This document shows, in pieces, positions 53,341-62,128 of a stretch of DNA of 64,000 nt (position 1 is the stretch's first letter; every line of letters starts with the position of its first letter). The notes beneath the pieces are model-generated. The model was given only the letters and a program-made list of their open reading frames with translations, had not been told where the DNA came from and made no database searches. The DNA lies in assembly GCA_043826505.1 (NCBI GenBank), contig JBDRQC010000008.1:114125-178124 (forward strand), given 5' to 3'. The DNA is from Chrysiogenia bacterium (GTDB lineage: Bacteria > Acidobacteriota > Aminicenantia > UBA2199). The translations under genes and the position numbers were made by a program.

Positions 53341-53466
53341 TATACGGTACACGGTTTACAGTAGACGGTAAGAAACTACCTGATTAAGGTTCGCGATAGA
53401 AAGAACTCGCATTCTCCCGATTTAAGGATTTTCACCGTACACCGTCAACCGTACGCCGTCTACCGA
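53341..53466. repeat. ACGG-heptamer inverted-repeat element
   Basis: ACGG at 53344/53351/53365 (ACAG at 53358); CCGT at 53435/53442/53449/53456 and CCGA at 53463. Confidence 0.85.
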
Positions 53467-54152
53467 TTTCCTCCAAGGATCGCCTCGGCTACAGCCAGAT
53501 CCTGCGGGTAGGTAATCTTTATGTTGACCGGATCACCAGGCACCGTGACGACCGAAGCCAGGCCGTAGCGAACTACCAAAGAGCAATCGTCACCGGCATT
53601 GGTGAAGCCATTGATCCGGGCCCGTTCATGGGCCGGGCGGATGATCTCCAGCTTGAATCCCTGTGGCGTCTGCACATGGCGGAGTTTGGCGCGGTCGAGA
53701 ACAGCCGTAACCACATCCGCATCATCGACGCGGATGGTCGTATCGCTGACCGGAAGAACTGGCATGACCGCTTGTGAGCAGGCCAGCGCTTCCAGTACCC
53801 GGCTGATCACTGCCGGCGCCACCAGCGCCCTGACAGCATCGTGAATAAGGATGTTTTCGCTGGTATCCGGGGCGGCACAGACCCCGATCGCTGATGATTC
53901 CTGGCGGGAATTTCCGCCGGGGAGGATATTTGTCACCTTTGTGAAGCGGCCGGCGGCTACCGTTTTTTCAGCCAGGGACATCTGGGCTGCAGGGCAGACA
54001 AGGATGATGCCATCCAGGCCCGGATGGTCCTGGAAGGTATCCAGGCAAATTTCCAGCAGCGAGCGGCCGCCGATCAGACGGAATTGCTTGGGCAAAGGGC
54101 CCTGGAAACGCGTCCCCGCTCCGCCGGCCAGGATTATGGCTAAGTTCTTCAT
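53460..54152 (-). CDS. ispD: IspD/TarI family cytidylyltransferase
   Basis: ILAGGAGTRF...PKQF, GGNSRQESS, ILIHDAVR, VQTPQGF, DDCSLV, NIKITYPQDL. Start MKNLAI at 54152, not the ORF-track 54563. Confidence 0.85.
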   Translation of the reverse strand: MKNLAIILAGGAGTRFQGPLPKQFRLIGGRSLLEICLDTFQDHPGLDGIILVCPAAQMSLAEKTVAAGRFTKVTNILPGGNSRQESSAIGVCAAPDTSENILIHDAVRALVAPAVISRVLEALACSQAVMPVLPVSDTTIRVDDADVVTAVLDRAKLRHVQTPQGFKLEIIRPAHERARINGFTNAGDDCSLVVRYGLASVVTVPGDPVNIKITYPQDLAVAEAILGGNR

Positions 54153-54170
54153 AGGAACATTATAATTCAA

Positions 54171-54309
54171 AGGGAAGAGAGAGGGAAGAAGGAGGGAAGA
54201 GTCAGGGAAGAGGGAGTAAAAAAAAGCGATAATTCGTGCCTGCTGTCTTCTTTCCTTTTCTTCCCTCTGCCTTTCCCTCATTCTTCCCATTGTTTTCCCT
54301 CTCTTCCCT
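54171..54309. repeat. GGGAAGA purine/pyrimidine inverted-repeat element
   Basis: AGGGAAGA units at 54171-54216 and TCTTCCC/TTCCCT units at 54247-54309, between divergent ispD and the murG fusion. Confidence 0.75.
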
Positions 54310-54356
54310 ATTATTTTCAAAACGTTTGCGGTATAATTGGCCCTGGCAAACCCAAC

Positions 54357-57300
54357 ATGAAAAAGTACAAATTCCTTTTTACCGGCGGCGGCACCGGCGG
54401 CCACGTCTATCCCAATCTTGCTATCTTTGAAGCGCTGAAGGAAAAGTACCCCGATGCCGAGTTCCTTTATATTGGCACCAAAAAAGGCAGTGAATCTGCC
54501 ATTATCCGCGCCCTGCCCCAACCCATGGAATTTGTCCATGTCCCGTCCAGGGGGCTGCCGCAAAACGTCAGGAGTCTAAAAACTTTATTTTCCCTGACAG
54601 CCATTTTTTTTGGCGCGATCAAAAGCTTTTTCATTCTGCGCAAATTCAGGCCCGATATTATCATCGGCAGCGGCGGCTATGTGGCCGCCCCGGTATTGCT
54701 GGCCGCCGCCCTGCTCAAAATCAAGGTTTTTATCCATGAACAGAACGCGGTCCCCGGCCGGCTCAACCTTTTTGTGGCCCGCTTCGCCACCAGAATAGGC
54801 ATAGCTTTTCCTTCTACCGCATCTTTTTTTGAAAGCTCCAAAGTAACAGAGACCGGCTATCCGCTGCGCCGATCGATCCGTGGCCACGGCGAAGAAAACA
54901 ACCGGGAGAAATTCAATATTCCTTCAAGCTGCCGCGTGCTTTTCATTTTCAGCGGCAGCATGGGGGCGCGCACCATCAACCGCGCAGCCGCGGCGATCAT
55001 TCCGCGACTATTGTGCCTGCCCAACCTGTTCGTCATCATGTCCACCGGAAAGGCCTATGGCAAGGATTACAAAGCCTACGACGACACTGTGAAGATCCTG
55101 GAGCAGAAAGGGTATCCGCCAGAGATCGAAGGCCGGCTGCTGCTCAGGGAGTACTTCGACCACATCGACGAGATCTATGCCATGTCCGACCTGGTGGTCT
55201 CGCGGGCCGGGGCTGGCGCCATTCAGGAGATCACGACCATGGGCTTGCCGGCCCTTCTTGTCCCCAAGATAGACCTGCCGGCCGATCACCAGATCCTGAA
55301 CGCCCGCGAGATAGAAAAAATTGGCGGAGCCCGGATCCTTTACGAAGAGAGCGGCGGCGGCCGGAAAAAAAACGAGATCTTTCTTGCGCCCGATGCTTTT
55401 TACAATGCCATTGAGGAGATCATCGGCGCCCCTGAGCAACTGGGGTCGATGCGTAAAAACCTGCTTGCCGTGAACCGGCTGGACAGCACCGCGATCATCC
55501 TGAAAACCGTTGAAGAGATAATCGCCAAAAACCACAGCCATGAAAGGGAGATCCGCGTTTTTTACCTGCAGTCCCTGGAAGAAGAAAAAAACTTTGAACT
55601 GCCTTTCACCCGCACCAGCGTGGGCAACACTTTCCTTAGCGATGTCATGCTGGAAAACATCGGTTCAAGCGTGCGCTTCGAGATCAGTTTTCTGAAGGAT
55701 GAGGAACAGTCGGCCATGATCCGGCGCCGCAAGGGCCGCGTCCAGCTGAATGGTCGAGAAATCACCGGCTTGAGGCCCCTGAAGCCCGATGACCGCATCA
55801 GCGTCCACGGCCGTACTTATATTTATAAAAGTTTCCTTGAGAAAACCAGGGCCAACAGCCATGATGACATGGCCGCTTCCGGAAAAAGAGGCTCCGCTTC
55901 CTCGGCCATGGCATCCCTTCTGCTCGCTTTCGGCCGTGAGATCGCTGCCGCGGCCCTGTTCGGGGCCGGCAAAGCCATGGATATCTTCTCCATTGCCCGG
56001 ACCGTCGTTGGTTTCCTGTCGCGCCTGCTGGGCAGCAGCGCCATGAAAAAAGCCTTCATGCCGATCTTTTCACGCCTGTTCCAGCGCGGCCCCCGCAAAA
56101 AAGCCTGGGAAGCGGTAGCGCCCCTGATCACTTGCACTATGCTGCTTTCACTGCTGCTCACCACTGCCGGTATGCTCTTGGCTCCGGTCATCATCGCTTT
56201 CCTGTTCCCCGGCCTCGCCGCCCATGGTCTGAGCAATGAAGCCACACACATGATCCGCGTCCTGCTTCCCGGTCTGTTCCTGGGCACGCTGGCAGCCATC
56301 CTTGCTGGATATTTGCAGACTTTCCACAGATCCGCCAGCGTCGGGTTCGCGACCATGCTTTTTGCCGCCGGCACCATTCTCGGCATTTTCCTGTTCAGGC
56401 CGGGCAGCGGTTCATTTTCCCTGGCCTACGGAGTCCTGTTCGGCTATTTGCTGCAAATCCTTTTCCTCATGCCTTTGCTGCTTAAAACCATCAGCCGGCC
56501 GCTGCTGGAGTTCACCTTCCAGCCGTCCCTTAAAATCAACAGCAGCGTCGGACGCAAGTACGTTACCCAGCTCGCCCCGGTCGGGCTGGGCGGAGTTCTG
56601 ACCCGCGGCCCGGAGCTGGTTGACAAGTTCGTAGCATCATCCCTGCGCGTCGGTTCGCTCTCCTTCCTCTACTTTGCCATGGAGATATTCCGCCTGCCTT
56701 TTGTTTTGCTGGCCAAAACCATCAACCGCGCCATTTTAAGGGATTTTTCCGAATCCACCGCCCTGTTGGACAAAGACAAGACAAAAATATTCTTCATCGA
56801 CGCTATCCGCATCAACCTGTTCCTGCTGGCCCCCGCCTCCATCCTGATGGTCACCCTGGCCAAACCCATCGTGTCGCTGCTTTTGCAAAGGTTTAACTTC
56901 AGCGCCCATGCGGTGTCCAGCACGTCCCTGGCCCTGCAATTCTATGCCATCGGCCTGATCGGCTGGGGCATTCACAATCTGACCACGAGATTCTTCGCAG
57001 CGCGCCTGGAAAACCGGACCTCGATGTTCCTCGACTTTTTCCTCTTGGCTTTCCATCTGCCGCTGGTCATCCTGCTGGCAGGCACTTCTTTGCGATTTGC
57101 CGGCATCGCCCTGGCCACCTCCATTTCCTATCTCACTTTCGCGCTGATCCGCGTCGCGGTCGTCAGGCACAAGCTGAAGCGGGACGGTGTCAAGGTAGCA
57201 TACAGGGAGATACTCTCGGCTGCCGGCAAAACCCTTTGCGCCTGCCTGCTGATGGTCATCGCCATCAGCGAGGCCCAATTCGTCTTCAAGCGCATCCAGT

Positions 57301-58133
57301 TCAATTCTCCCACCTTAAAAAATATAATTCTTTGCCTGTCGCTGACCTTTATGGGCACGGCCATTTACTTTTTGTCTTCGCTGATCTTCAAAAACACCGG
57401 AATTCTGATCTTCAAAAGAAGAGGCGGCGGCAGCCGCCCGGGCGTTCCCATTTCCCTGCTTTCACCGTTCCGGTTCATGGAAACCGTGAGCGCCAATCCC
57501 GAATTCTACAAGACGGAATTCCGCTACAAGATCAACCTGTACCTCTCCAACCCCAGCTGGGAGATTAAAAATATCGGCATCAAGCTGATCGGCCTCTTCA
57601 AGGAAAAAAGCAAGAGCGCTTACCTGGTCGACATGCTGAGCGCAGGCCAGGGCAACGGCTTCATGCGCCGCAACGCCCTGGTTTCCCTGAAGGCGATCGG
57701 CCACTGGAACGACGAAACAAAAGAACTGCTGCTGCGCCTGCTCAAAGACGGTTATTTCGAAGTACGCGCGGCTGCCCTGGATTACCTGGGACAGCATATC
57801 AGCGAAAGCGAATACGGCGAATTGCAGAAGACCATCCAGCGCCGGCTTGCCCACGGCAGTATTGATGAAAAGATCGCCTGTTTGCGGCTCATGGCGCGCA
57901 AGGGGAATCTAAGCGACCTGCCGGGGCTGCAGCGTCTGTACCTGCACAACAACTCACTGCTCCGCGAAGAGGTCCTGGAGCTTCTGTATTCTTATTATCG
58001 CCGCAATCTGCTTAGCGGCTCGGACATCAAGGATCAGCTGCAGCAGGTGCTGATCACCTCCGACCATTTGTCACCTGAATTCAGGATCAAGGCCATTATC
58101 AAGCGTATTTACAAGGAGATCGATCACCCATGA
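54357..58133 (+). CDS. murG: Fusion protein: MurG + FHA-like + MurJ/MviN + HEAT repeats (1258 aa)
   Basis: MurG motifs TGGGTGGHVYP, GSGGYVAAP, HEQNAVPG, GSMGA, SRAGAG, DHQILNA (aa 1-391). MurJ-like GREIAAAALFGAG...MDIF with about 14 TMs (aa 510-1012). HEAT-like LLKDGYFEVRAAALDYLG. Single uninterrupted ORF. Confidence 0.9.
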   Translation: MKKYKFLFTGGGTGGHVYPNLAIFEALKEKYPDAEFLYIGTKKGSESAIIRALPQPMEFVHVPSRGLPQNVRSLKTLFSLTAIFFGAIKSFFILRKFRPDIIIGSGGYVAAPVLLAAALLKIKVFIHEQNAVPGRLNLFVARFATRIGIAFPSTASFFESSKVTETGYPLRRSIRGHGEENNREKFNIPSSCRVLFIFSGSMGARTINRAAAAIIPRLLCLPNLFVIMSTGKAYGKDYKAYDDTVKILEQKGYPPEIEGRLLLREYFDHIDEIYAMSDLVVSRAGAGAIQEITTMGLPALLVPKIDLPADHQILNAREIEKIGGARILYEESGGGRKKNEIFLAPDAFYNAIEEIIGAPEQLGSMRKNLLAVNRLDSTAIILKTVEEIIAKNHSHEREIRVFYLQSLEEEKNFELPFTRTSVGNTFLSDVMLENIGSSVRFEISFLKDEEQSAMIRRRKGRVQLNGREITGLRPLKPDDRISVHGRTYIYKSFLEKTRANSHDDMAASGKRGSASSAMASLLLAFGREIAAAALFGAGKAMDIFSIARTVVGFLSRLLGSSAMKKAFMPIFSRLFQRGPRKKAWEAVAPLITCTMLLSLLLTTAGMLLAPVIIAFLFPGLAAHGLSNEATHMIRVLLPGLFLGTLAAILAGYLQTFHRSASVGFATMLFAAGTILGIFLFRPGSGSFSLAYGVLFGYLLQILFLMPLLLKTISRPLLEFTFQPSLKINSSVGRKYVTQLAPVGLGGVLTRGPELVDKFVASSLRVGSLSFLYFAMEIFRLPFVLLAKTINRAILRDFSESTALLDKDKTKIFFIDAIRINLFLLAPASILMVTLAKPIVSLLLQRFNFSAHAVSSTSLALQFYAIGLIGWGIHNLTTRFFAARLENRTSMFLDFFLLAFHLPLVILLAGTSLRFAGIALATSISYLTFALIRVAVVRHKLKRDGVKVAYREILSAAGKTLCACLLMVIAISEAQFVFKRIQFNSPTLKNIILCLSLTFMGTAIYFLSSLIFKNTGILIFKRRGGGSRPGVPISLLSPFRFMETVSANPEFYKTEFRYKINLYLSNPSWEIKNIGIKLIGLFKEKSKSAYLVDMLSAGQGNGFMRRNALVSLKAIGHWNDETKELLLRLLKDGYFEVRAAALDYLGQHISESEYGELQKTIQRRLAHGSIDEKIACLRLMARKGNLSDLPGLQRLYLHNNSLLREEVLELLYSYYRRNLLSGSDIKDQLQQVLITSDHLSPEFRIKAIIKRIYKEIDHP

Positions 58134-59236
58134 TCATCTGGATCAGCGAATTCTTTGTCAACCTTCCCGGCCAGAGGCTGATGACCTACATTACCTTCAG
58201 GGCCCTGATGGCCGTGCTCACCTCTTTTGTCATCGGCATCCTGCTGGGGCGCCGAGTGATCCACGCCATCTACCAGCTGAACTTCCGCGATCGGGCCAGG
58301 GATTTCGGCGACATGTCGTCCCGCAACAAGGACGGCACTCCGACCATGGGCGGTTTGATCATCTTTTTTTCCCTGCTGATATCGGTGCTGCTCTGGGGCA
58401 GTTGGAAAAAGCCGAACGATTTTTTTCTGGGCACCATGATTTTTACCGCTTTCTGGTTCACGGCCCTGGGTTTTTTTGACGATTACCTGAAAAATATCCG
58501 CGGTTCAAGCGACCTGGGCATGAACCGCGGCCTGAAGCTTTTTCTGCAGGCCCTGTTCGGTCTGATCCTCGGCCTGCTGCTGCTGGCCTCGGAAGCCTCT
58601 CCCTTTGCTCCCGAGATAGCCGGCAAGCTGTTTGTCCCTTTCCTGAAAAACCCACTGCTCGACCTGGGTATCTTCTATTATCCATTTATTATCCTGGTCA
58701 TCATCGCCATCGCCAATTCCATTAATTTCGCCGACGGGCTCGACGGCCTGGCCACGGTTCCGGCCGGACTGCTGCTGGCGGTCTACGCAGTTTTCGCTTA
58801 CATCATCGGCAATTCCAAGGCAGCAAAATACCTGTGGTTCCCTTTCATCAACGGTTCGGGCGAATTGGTTGTAATCCTGGCCGCCCTTATAGGCGCCCTG
58901 GCCGCTTTCCTCTGGTTTAATGCCTACCCGGCTGAAATATTCATGGGCGACACCGGCTCGCTGCTGATCGGCGGCGTCATCGCCACCGCGGCGGTGCTGC
59001 TCAAGCATGAGTTGCTTTTCCTGATCGCCGGCGGTGTATTTGTCATCGAGTTTCTTTCTGTTTTTATACAGGACTACATCGGAATCAAACTGATCAAGCG
59101 CCGCATCTTTTACCGCGCCCCCATCCACCACACCTATCAGTTCCTGGGCATCGCCGAACCCAAGATCGTCATCCGCTTCTGGATCCTGGCGGTGATCTTC
59201 ACCCTGATCAGCCTGATCAGCATCAAGCTGCGCTGA
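58130..59236 (+). CDS. mraY: Phospho-N-acetylmuramoyl-pentapeptide transferase
   Basis: KDGTPTMGG, LGFFDDY, NSINFADGLDGL, WFNAYPAEIFMGDTGSL, RAPIHHTY. Overlaps the fusion stop (ATGA). Confidence 0.95.
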   Translation: MIIWISEFFVNLPGQRLMTYITFRALMAVLTSFVIGILLGRRVIHAIYQLNFRDRARDFGDMSSRNKDGTPTMGGLIIFFSLLISVLLWGSWKKPNDFFLGTMIFTAFWFTALGFFDDYLKNIRGSSDLGMNRGLKLFLQALFGLILGLLLLASEASPFAPEIAGKLFVPFLKNPLLDLGIFYYPFIILVIIAIANSINFADGLDGLATVPAGLLLAVYAVFAYIIGNSKAAKYLWFPFINGSGELVVILAALIGALAAFLWFNAYPAEIFMGDTGSLLIGGVIATAAVLLKHELLFLIAGGVFVIEFLSVFIQDYIGIKLIKRRIFYRAPIHHTYQFLGIAEPKIVIRFWILAVIFTLISLISIKLR

Positions 59237-59257: not shown

Positions 59258-62128
59258 ATGTTCGCCAGAAAAACTATTGTAGCTAAAAAAAAGCAAAGCC
59301 GCCTGGACTGGCACTCGCTGAGCGCCGAGGACATTGCGCGCCAGCTGGCCACCCCCGTCGAAGCGGGGCTGGACAGCCGCGAAGCGGCCAGACGCCAGGC
59401 AATGTACGGACCCAACCAGATCGCGGCCTTGCCCCGTCCCACTTTCCTGCAGCTGCTGCTTGCCCAGTTCAACAACTTCATTGTCTTGCTCCTGATCGCG
59501 GCCGCGTCCATATCGGGGCTGCTGGGCGAATGGATCGAAGCGGTGGCCATCCTGGCCATCGTTGTCCTGAACGCCACCCTGGGGGTGATCCAGGACCGCC
59601 GCGCCGAGGAGGCGCTGGCCGCCCTGAAAAAACTGGCGGCCCCGGAAGCGCAGGTGCTGCGCGACGGCTCGCGCCGGGCCATTCCCAGCCCGGAGATCGT
59701 TCCCGGAGATATCGTTTTCATTGAGGCGGGAAACTTTGTCCCGGCCGACCTGCGCCTGGTGGAAGCGGTGAACCTGCGCCTGGAAGAAGCCGCCCTGACC
59801 GGCGAATCGGTGCCGGTGCAGAAAGACGCCAATATCCGCCTGGAAGCCAATGTGCCCCTTGGCGACCGCAGGAACACGGCTTTCATGGGCACCCTGGTCA
59901 ACTCGGGTCGCGGCCGTGGTATCGTGGTTTCCACGGGCATGCATACGCAAATAGGCCTGATCGCCGAGATGCTGCAAAACGTAAAGGAGGAGACCACGCC
60001 GCTGCAAAAGCGCCTGGATGGGTTGGGCAAGGTGCTGGGAGGCGCCGCCCTGGCGGTCTGCGCCCTGGTGTTTGCCATCGGCTGGATGCGCGGTCATGCG
60101 CCCCTGGAAATGTTCATGCTGGCCGTGGGCCTGGCCATCGCCGCCGTTCCCGAGGGCTTGCCGGCGGTGGTCACCATAAGCCTGGCGCTGGGCATGCGTG
60201 AAATGGTCAAGCGCCACGCCTTGATCCGCCGTTTGTCGTCAGTGGAAACCCTGGGCTCGACCACTGTCATCTGCTCGGACAAGACCGGCACCCTGACCCA
60301 GAACAAGATGACCGTAACCCGCATGTGGGCCGACGGCAAATTCCTTGATGTGAGCGGATCGGACCATGCCCTGAAGGGTGATTTCCTGGCCCAGGGCCAA
60401 CCCGTGCAGCTGACCGACTTTCAGGCTATCCTGACCGCCCTGTGGGTTGGCGCCCTGAACAACGATGCCCATCTTGAAGTCTCGGGCGAAAGCAGCGTCG
60501 CTGGTATGAGCTACCGCATGGTGGGCGACCCGACCGAGGGCGCCCTGCTGGTGGCGGCGGCCAAGGCCGGCGCCCTGCCCCGGCCGTTGAACCAGGCCTA
60601 TCCGCGCGTGGCCGAGATACCCTTTGACTCGACGCGCAAGAACATGGTGACGGTGCACCACATCCTGCATCCGCATCCCGAGGACATCTCCCCCTTCGAC
60701 GAGCAAAAGCTCTACAGCGGCTACGTGATCGCCGTCAAAGGCGCTCCCGACATGGTGTTGAACCTTTGCTCGCGCTACCAGTGTCATGACGACAGCAGCG
60801 CCTCCCTGGATGACGCCCGCCGCCGCCAGATACTGGAAGCCAACGAGACCATGACCCGCGGCGCCCTGCGCGTGCTCGGCCTGGCCTATCGGGTCGAACG
60901 CGAACTCCCCGACGTCAGCGATATTCGCAACATCGAAAAGGACCTGGTCTTTGTCGGCCTGACCGGCATGATCGATCCACCGCGCCCGGAAGCGGCGCCT
61001 GCCCTGGCCCAGGCCGGCCAAGCCGGCATCCGCACCATTATGATCACCGGCGACTTCCCCAACACGGCCCGGGCCATCGCAGACAGCATCGGGCTGCTAA
61101 GGGCCGGCCGCCAGGTGCTGACCGGAAAAGACATCGACGCCCTGAGCGACGCCGAACTGGAAGCGAGCGTGAATAACACCGATGTGTTCGCCCGCGTCTC
61201 CCCGGAAAACAAGCTGCGCATCGTCAACGCCCTGCGCGCCAACAGCGAGGTAGTGGCCATGACCGGAGACGGTGTCAACGACGCCCCCTCGATCAAGGCC
61301 GCCGACATCGGAGTGGCCATGGGCATCACCGGCACCGACGTGGCCAAGGAAAGCGCCGACATGGTGCTCACCGACGACAACTACGCCAGCATTGTTTCGG
61401 CCGTTGAGCAGGGGCGCATCATCTACGACAACATCCGCAAATTCGTATTCTACCTCCTCTCTTCGAACGTGGCCGAGATCATGATCATTTTCCTGGCCAT
61501 GCTGGCCGGCCTGCCCTCGCCGCTGACCGTCATCCAGCTGCTGTGGTTGAACCTGATCACCGACGGCGCCCCGGCCCTGGCCCTGGCCATGGAGAAAGGG
61601 GATCCCGACATCATGCGCCGCCAACCGCGGCCGCCGCGCGAACCGGTGATCAATGCCAATATGCGCCTGGGCATACTGATCCAGACCTTCACCCAGACCG
61701 GGGCCGTGCTGACGGCGTTCGCGCTGGGGCTGCTCTGGCACCTGCGCGCCGGCGACGTTATTCCGCCCGGGGCCAACCCCATGGCCTTCCTTCTGCGCTA
61801 CGACTGGCGCGGCCTGGACGTGCAGAACGCCGAGACCATGGCCTTCATGACCCTTTCCCTGTGCGAGCTTTTCCGCGCCTACACCGTGCGCTCGGAACGC
61901 ATCTCGCTTTTCAGGCTCGGGATCTTCTCCAACCGCTATATGCAGGCAGCGGTCGCACTTTCCTTTACCCTGCTCCTGCTGGTTGTCAGCGTGCCGTTCC
62001 TGCAGCCGGTATTCAACACCCATTTGCCCAGCCTCCGGGAGCTGTGGGTAGTGTTGGGGTTGGCGCTTGTGCCGGCTATGGCTGAGGAGTTGACGAAGTT
62101 GTATCTCCGGCACAGGGATCGGAAATAG
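59258..62128 (+). CDS. Cation-translocating P-type ATPase (P2A, Ca2+-type)
   Basis: [50 protein letters not shown]. Confidence 0.93.

Follow-up and report, generated by a model that had tools for sequence, protein, structure and literature searches.

In a genome assigned to a Chrysiogenia bacterium (Acidobacteriota, Aminicenantia; GenBank assembly GCA_043826505.1, contig JBDRQC010000008.1), a stretch of 64,000 nucleotides (positions 114,125 to 178,124, hereafter the window) contains a single unbroken open reading frame (ORF; 54357..58133, plus strand) of 1258 aa, which carries a MurG glycosyltransferase, an FHA-fold domain, a domain of the MurJ flippase family and a HEAT-type solenoid, and which is directly followed by mraY. 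The encoded protein is quite probably the housekeeping lipid II synthase (MurG) and flippase (MurJ) of its lineage, combined in one polypeptide and translationally coupled to MraY. It represents a new domain architecture of known enzymes, not a new kind of system, and is apparently unpublished.

Following this assignment, MraY would make lipid I in the inner leaflet, the MurG domain, kept at the membrane because it is covalently attached to the 14-helix MurJ, would add GlcNAc to give lipid II, and the adjoining MurJ domain would flip lipid II outward. The product is presumably made as a single uncleaved polypeptide, and the fusion would thus fix a 1:1 ratio of synthase to flippase and keep both within nanometres of each other, with a direct hand-off, or channelling, of the substrate from MurG to MurJ as a plausible outcome.

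Domains of the fusion protein and overlap with mraY

The presence of four domains in one ORF had been proposed in a first-pass annotation of the window, and both the scans with Pfam and NCBIfam models and the AlphaFold2 (AF2) fold models agree with it, the proposed coordinates and domain limits being right to within about 10 residues. The MurG domain (aa 1-392, 54357..55532, plus strand, as are all parts of the gene) matches Pfam Glyco_transf_28 (PF03033) at aa 6-148 (E 7e-33, 114 bits) and Glyco_tran_28_C (PF04101) at aa 194-330 (E 8e-20, 72 bits), and a search of the PDB with this N-terminal part retrieves the MurG structures 7D1I, 3S2U and 1F0K (E 5e-32). The motifs GGTGGH, SGGY, HEQN, GS.GAR, E291 and HQ..NA are invariant across 15 diverse fusions, and their residues (G10-H16, S105-G107, H127-N130, G200/S201/G203/R205, E291, and H311/Q312/N315/A316) align to 1F0K. 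The set of catalytic and UDP-GlcNAc motifs is complete, including the Glu equivalent to E269, and the domain is predicted to be an intact two-domain GT-B enzyme of glycosyltransferase family 28 (GT28).

The middle domain (aa 396-498, 55542..55850) is less conspicuous. Taken alone, it gives nothing significant against Pfam (best match Yop-YscD_cpl, E 0.19), and only three of its 24 homologues match Yop-YscD_cpl, weakly, so its assignment needed a sequence profile and a fold model. The profile of the 24 homologues compared with the PDB retrieves the FHA domain of EmbR first (E 0.002), followed by the FHA domains of KIF13B and Ki-67, while the AF2 model of the domain (m027e3c168aea, 88 homologues, predicted local distance difference test [pLDDT] 85.5) shows an 11-strand beta-sandwich of the FHA fold, and each of its top 50 Foldseek matches in the PDB is an FHA or FHA-like domain (probability 1.0, template modelling score [TM-score] 0.6-0.78). 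One of these fold matches is 3OUN, a complex of FhaA with Rv3910, a mycobacterial homologue of MurJ.

Does this domain read phosphothreonine, as FHA domains may do? In 106 of 120 homologues Asn stands in for the Arg of the GR motif (GN), no His is found at the variable SxxH position, and of the phosphothreonine-binding residues only NG is kept. The middle domain has an FHA fold and is probably no phospho-reader; it would rather be a spacer or a protein-interaction module. The first-pass annotation had cast the FHA and HEAT domains as regulatory or scaffold modules; of this idea, a regulatory role of FHA loses support, given that the residues for phosphothreonine binding are lacking.

Two known systems offer parallels. 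In Mycobacterium tuberculosis, MviN (Rv3910) and FhaA (3OUN) likewise tie an FHA fold to a MurJ-family flippase on the cytoplasmic side. There, the FHA protein is a separate one that reportedly binds the phosphorylated pseudokinase domain of MviN, whereas in the window fusion the FHA domain is present in cis and lacks the Arg, Ser and His that bind phosphothreonine, and the protein is devoid of a pseudokinase domain. The other parallel is provided by YscD of type III secretion systems (4A0E, 4D9V) and EssC of type VII secretion systems, where an FHA-like fold without phosphopeptide binding likewise forms a cytoplasmic module of a membrane machine; the machine is nevertheless a different one, and YscD and EssC have no detectable sequence relationship to the window FHA domain beyond the fold.

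A variable linker (aa 499-513, 55851..55895), whose sequence differs among homologues and whose pLDDT is below 50 in both models, leads to the MurJ domain (aa 514-1019, 55896..57413), a member of the MOP flippases with about 14 transmembrane (TM) helices, as judged by AF2 and the hydropathy profile. Pfam MurJ (PF03023) is matched at aa 532-971 (E 3e-60, 204.5 bits), and in the PDB sequence search the membrane part matches MurJ structures only. An AF2 model of aa 385-1258 (pLDDT 85.5, predicted TM-score 0.67) places in the same protein the beta-sandwich (396-498), a disordered linker, the TM helices (514-1010), a short linker of low confidence and a solenoid (1037-1256). The 15 best PDB matches of this model in Foldseek are all MurJ, with a TM-score of 0.88 over the whole inward-closed chain of 7WAW, and the fold matches to MATE and WzxE are weaker by 4-6 orders of magnitude in E-value. 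The membrane region is therefore not a non-MurJ MOP exporter, which would have contradicted the identity first proposed for it, and the sequence model and the 14-helix fold, TM13-14 included, concur on MurJ. Both termini of E. coli MurJ are cytoplasmic, and since the MurJ part of the fusion covers the complete solved chain, the soluble MurG, FHA and HEAT parts should all be cytoplasmic; their initial placing on the side of the membrane where MurG acts is consistent with this.

The C-terminal domain (aa 1037-1258, 57465..58130) is preceded by a conserved SLLSPF motif. Pfam HEAT_2 is matched at aa 1062-1144 with 29.2 bits, just over the gathering score of 27.7, and this score reaches 85 bits in relatives. 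About 13 helices are modelled by AF2 between aa 1037 and 1256 (pLDDT ~92) as an alpha-solenoid of HEAT-type repeats, and the MurG-HEAT proteins of other phyla, discussed below, end in a tail homologous to this domain. The TGA stop of the fusion gene overlaps the ATG start of mraY as ATGA (58130-58133), so that the stop/start overlap first noted for this locus can be read directly in the sequence and supports the two-gene coupling. The product of mraY (58130..59236, plus strand, 368 aa) scores 289 bits against TIGR00445, well above the cut-off of 192, and its translation shows the FDDY, GDTGS and PIHH motifs of MraY. The HEAT solenoid would most likely dock MraY or the cytoplasmic Mur enzymes; the partners suggested for it, like those of the FHA domain, are putative.

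Conservation, copy number and the dcw cluster

As the source is a metagenome-assembled genome (MAG), could separate genes have been joined by a sequencing error, at the level of assembly or gene calling? This is hardly credible. A homologue search that covered 5.8 billion proteins retrieved 194 homologues, the matches listed being of about 1258 aa and 45-94% identical, from many independent assemblies and sources (NCBI, JGI, ENA and Logan), and labelled mostly Candidatus Aminicenantes, database names being automatic. Among 1.84 billion representatives at 50% identity, about 23 clusters hold MurG and MurJ in one chain. The linkers are kept in frame, and the ratio of non-synonymous to synonymous substitution rates (omega), estimated against two close relatives, is below 1 in every domain: 0.15 for MurG, 0.18-0.28 for FHA, 0.19-0.29 for MurJ, 0.15-0.35 for HEAT, and 0.04 for mraY. 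These values point to purifying selection on all four fusion domains. The fusion is real and no assembly artefact.

The genome of the window is 67.6% complete and contains one MurG and one MurJ match, both in the fusion. Its dcw cluster (genes for cell division and the cell wall) is not assembled, and the genome has only two Mur-ligase-like genes outside dcw and one SEDS gene. With such an incomplete genome, the single-copy status of the fusion rests on relatives, of which about 40, each at least 90% complete, were used. Of 41 relatives, 40 have one MurG match each, which in families f1, f2 and f6 is the fusion without exception. Throughout the window's own family (24 genomes from 16 genera), the sole MurG match shares an open frame of about 1265-1290 aa with a MurJ match, one case of an assembly gap aside, and the only mraY match above cut-off sits about 0.9 kb downstream, as it does in f1, f2 and f6. 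Most genomes of the window's genus are devoid of a second MurJ. When separate murG and murJ genes were looked for in near-complete relatives, the fusion turned out to be their sole MurG and, in most of them, their sole MurJ as well. In one member of the same genus (G008, 93% complete), MurG, MurJ and an above-cut-off mraY are all missing together, as would be expected if they share a single locus, which most likely fell in an assembly gap.

The first-pass annotation had also located the cassette outside dcw, and the dcw cluster of the relatives bears this out. In a congener (G005), a contiguous cluster comprises rsmH, ftsI, murE, murF, murD, ftsW, murC, an ORF of 267 aa (possibly ftsQ), ftsA and ftsZ, and leaves no room for mraY between murF and murD, nor for murG between ftsW and murC; the same gene spacing is found in five more fusion-bearing genomes. 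Exactly mraY and murG have thus been removed from a cluster that is otherwise intact.

These data also bear on another explanation, namely that the cassette serves no housekeeping peptidoglycan synthesis but a specialised second pathway, which would make and export another undecaprenyl-linked glycan. Its location outside dcw, equivalog scores under the cut-off (see below) and the accessory FHA and HEAT domains could be understood in this way. Against this, the cassette holds the only MurG and the only above-cut-off mraY in at least 30 near-complete genomes, the same genomes keep murC-F, ftsW, ftsI and ftsZ in a dcw cluster that lacks exactly mraY and murG, and mraY itself passes the equivalog cut-off. 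A second, non-peptidoglycan pathway is very improbable, and was rejected on copy number and dcw content.

Residues of the MurJ cavity

Besides the state of the window's own genome, several observations weigh against the fusion being the housekeeping synthase and flippase. Neither catalytic domain reaches its NCBIfam equivalog cut-off: murG (TIGR01133) is matched at aa 3-382 with 219.4 bits for a cut-off of 250.25, which the stand-alone MurG of sister families exceeds, unlike the fusion, and murJ_mviN (TIGR01695) at aa 516-1012 with 204 bits for a cut-off of 235.55. Published mutagenesis indicates that E. coli MurJ requires Arg residues in its cavity. In the window protein, L521 and S555 occupy the positions of E. 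coli R18 and R52, and E776 that of R270, with an Arg (R779) three residues later, so that the central-cavity set R18/R24/D39/R52/R270 is incomplete, only R24 (R527) and D39 (D542) being kept; the first-pass annotation had overlooked this lack of several cavity Arg. Some members of the family additionally possess an extra stand-alone MurJ-like gene.

The losses of Arg keep alive an explanation in which the MurJ-like domain, no longer a flippase, serves MurG chiefly as a scaffold or an anchor in the membrane, and lipid II is flipped by another protein, for instance a SEDS protein, a divergent MOP paralogue or some transporter that has escaped recognition. We regard this as unlikely, albeit as the most serious of the alternatives. 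Three of the four cavity Arg relevant in E. coli are indeed altered (L521, S555, E776), the fused MurJ domains score about 200-280 bits compared with about 400 for the stand-alone MurJ of sister families, omega is somewhat higher for the MurJ domain than for MurG and mraY, and extra MOP paralogues occur in some relatives. However, of 120 fusions, 115 keep R24 and 113 keep D39. In the same set, Arg is found at the R18 position in 100 and at the R52 position in 106; both losses are recent and restricted to the nearest relatives of the window. Only five of the 120 have Arg at the R270 position, while 81 have it three residues further, which makes the shifted Arg a family trait and suggests that the charge was relocated, not lost. 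The full 14-helix MurJ fold is moreover retained at high confidence and under purifying selection, a further MurJ match is absent from most of the near-complete genomes in the genus, and no Amj homologue was found in the 25 genomes searched.

Marked decay of the fused MurJ domain is seen only where a stand-alone MurJ coexists with it. In a single relative (G017), a stand-alone MurJ scoring 266 bits (L014, G017:C18, 1531-3078) is found beside a fusion (L015, G017:C1, 3969-7715) whose degraded MurJ domain scores 122-125 bits and forms the longest branch of the tree. The decay of a fused domain next to a good stand-alone MurJ supports a flippase function of the normal fused domain, and the MurJ domain of the window would accordingly be expected to act as a flippase. 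In G017 itself, constraint on the fused domain seems to have relaxed with another flippase gene in the genome.

The HEAT-mraY unit and related systems

To what extent is this fusion restricted to the family of the window? Sister families of the same class have a MurG-MurJ-HEAT protein without FHA (about 1071 aa), or a permuted MurJ-MurG-HEAT protein (1154-1164 aa), an order that had escaped the first-pass annotation; in both cases an overlapping mraY comes next, and the tail of the permuted form is homologous to the window HEAT domain (blastp, 2e-14). Five other families of the class keep the classical arrangement, in which murG stands alone at about 3 kb from mraY and murJ is a gene apart. 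Outside Aminicenantia, a MurG-HEAT protein of 680-780 aa, which is the only MurG there, is followed by an overlapping mraY and then by a separate murJ, in lineages that include Acidobacteriota (among them a complete chromosome of 6.9 Mb and a MAG of Thermoanaerobaculia), Calditrichota and Candidatus Hatepunaea, and the dcw spacing leaves no room for mraY or murG in three of the genomes checked.

Quick trees were built for both enzymes. In that of MurG, all HEAT-linked MurG domains group in a single clade (support 100%) that excludes canonical MurG, the ones of the classical families of the class among them. In that of MurJ, the fused domains of MurG-FHA-MurJ-HEAT and MurG-MurJ-HEAT group together (support 98), as sister to the permuted MurJ-MurG-HEAT, whereas the MurG tree sets the permuted type apart from the two other fusion types. 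When an independent origin of the two domain orders was tested, the approximately unbiased (AU) test did not reject monophyly of the MurG domains fused to MurJ (p 0.24). Other variants were encountered along the way. A MurG-(~140 aa)-MurJ-HEAT protein of 1324 aa, 30% identical to that of the window and followed by mraY, is encoded in an unclassified MAG (L030, DAIMDW010000009.1, 2962-6936), its MurG grouping weakly with the permuted type and its MurJ with MurG-FHA-MurJ-HEAT and MurG-MurJ-HEAT. The representative library (P0237, P0148, P0180) further contains a pentapeptide-repeat-MurG-HEAT protein of 985 aa, along with proteins of 729 and 771 aa that look like MurJ-HEAT lacking MurG and may be truncated gene calls.

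In every architecture and phylum examined, HEAT is encoded directly upstream of mraY. The constant element of the wider family is this position of HEAT and not the fusion to MurJ, a point missed by the first-pass annotation.

The immediate neighbours of the cassette, that is ispD, a histidine kinase, a prepilin peptidase and a P-type ATPase, are syntenic in close relatives only, and therefore lie outside the conserved unit. The ispD gene (53460-54152, minus strand), divergent from the fusion gene and adjacent to it in close relatives only, encodes the cytidylyltransferase of the methylerythritol phosphate (MEP) pathway, a route to the isoprenoid carrier lipid; a listed TTG-initiated ORF of 367 aa overlaps the start of the fusion, but its IspD domain starts at M138, so the real ispD is of about 230 aa. 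The intergenic region between both genes (54153..54356) has TATAAT-like boxes at both ends, flanking inverted GGGAAG-rich and CTTCCC-rich tracts (54164-54319, 32-nt arms, 78% complementary), and may be a divergent promoter, a regulatory structure, or a repeat element like others in the window. A scan with the sigma-70 consensus flagged no promoter upstream of the fusion and no convincing internal terminator. Directly after mraY, a P-type cation ATPase (59258-62128, 956 aa) has a GC content of about 64%, compared with about 55% for its surroundings, and is syntenic in genus-level relatives only.

With respect to separate MraY, MurG and MurJ of the E. coli type (1F0K, 3S2U; 6CC4, 7WAG, 5T77), the same families, folds and MurG motifs are found here, and the order of reactions is expected to be the same. 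These proteins are, however, encoded by separate genes, whereas here MurG and MurJ form one chain with FHA and HEAT, mraY and murG are gone from dcw, and R18, R52 and R270 of E. coli MurJ are not conserved in the window protein. Natural chimeras of Mur proteins have been listed (MurE-MurF, MurG-MurC, MurC-MurB, MurC-Ddl, MurD-FtsW and MraY-MurG; PMC10214165), and are likewise lineage-specific in-frame fusions, taken to signal a physical complex. The MurG-MurJ type is not in this list, and differs from those listed in that a peripheral enzyme is joined to an integral-membrane flippase normally encoded outside dcw, and in that the fusion is found in two domain orders. The closest relatives of the window cassette are the murG::HEAT-mraY-murJ cassettes of Acidobacteriota, Calditrichota and others, which share the HEAT-linked MurG clade, HEAT upstream of an overlapping mraY, a sole MurG, and a dcw cluster without mraY and murG; murJ is separate in them and lies downstream of mraY, whereas in the lineage of the window MurJ is inserted between MurG and HEAT. 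No publication on these cassettes was found. Full-text literature searches on MurG/MurJ fusions and on Aminicenantes peptidoglycan gave no description of the architecture reported here, a published study of dcw evolution does not mention a MurG-MurJ fusion, and the statement of the first-pass annotation that no characterised MurG-MurJ fusion is known agrees with these searches.

A more far-reaching proposal, put forward tentatively and with more doubt than confidence, is that the HEAT solenoid is an unrecognised adaptor that joins MraY, MurG and MurJ into a physical complex for the synthesis and export of lipid II across several phyla. The Aminicenantes fusions, in their two domain orders, might then be the Rosetta-stone record of such a complex, and a direct hand-off from MurG might relax the need for the Arg with which MurJ captures its substrate, and so account for the loss of these residues in this lineage.

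What is the flippase of lipid II, and by what route does the newly made lipid get to it? Both questions have long been debated, and recent literature still debates whether MurJ or SEDS proteins are the lipid II flippase, as well as the dispensability of MurJ and Amj in B. subtilis. A MurG-MurJ fusion that is natural and covalent provides genomic evidence, independent of that debate, for MurJ acting directly downstream of MurG; it occurs in two domain orders, as the sole MurG (and usually the sole MurJ) in whole lineages, and always coupled to mraY. It also shows that the dcw cluster, otherwise very stable, has lost exactly mraY and murG in a group that spans several phyla. Taken together, the HEAT domain is a candidate organiser of the membrane steps of peptidoglycan synthesis, and the fusion is a tractable single-chain object on which the hand-off between MurG and MurJ may be studied by structural and biochemical approaches.

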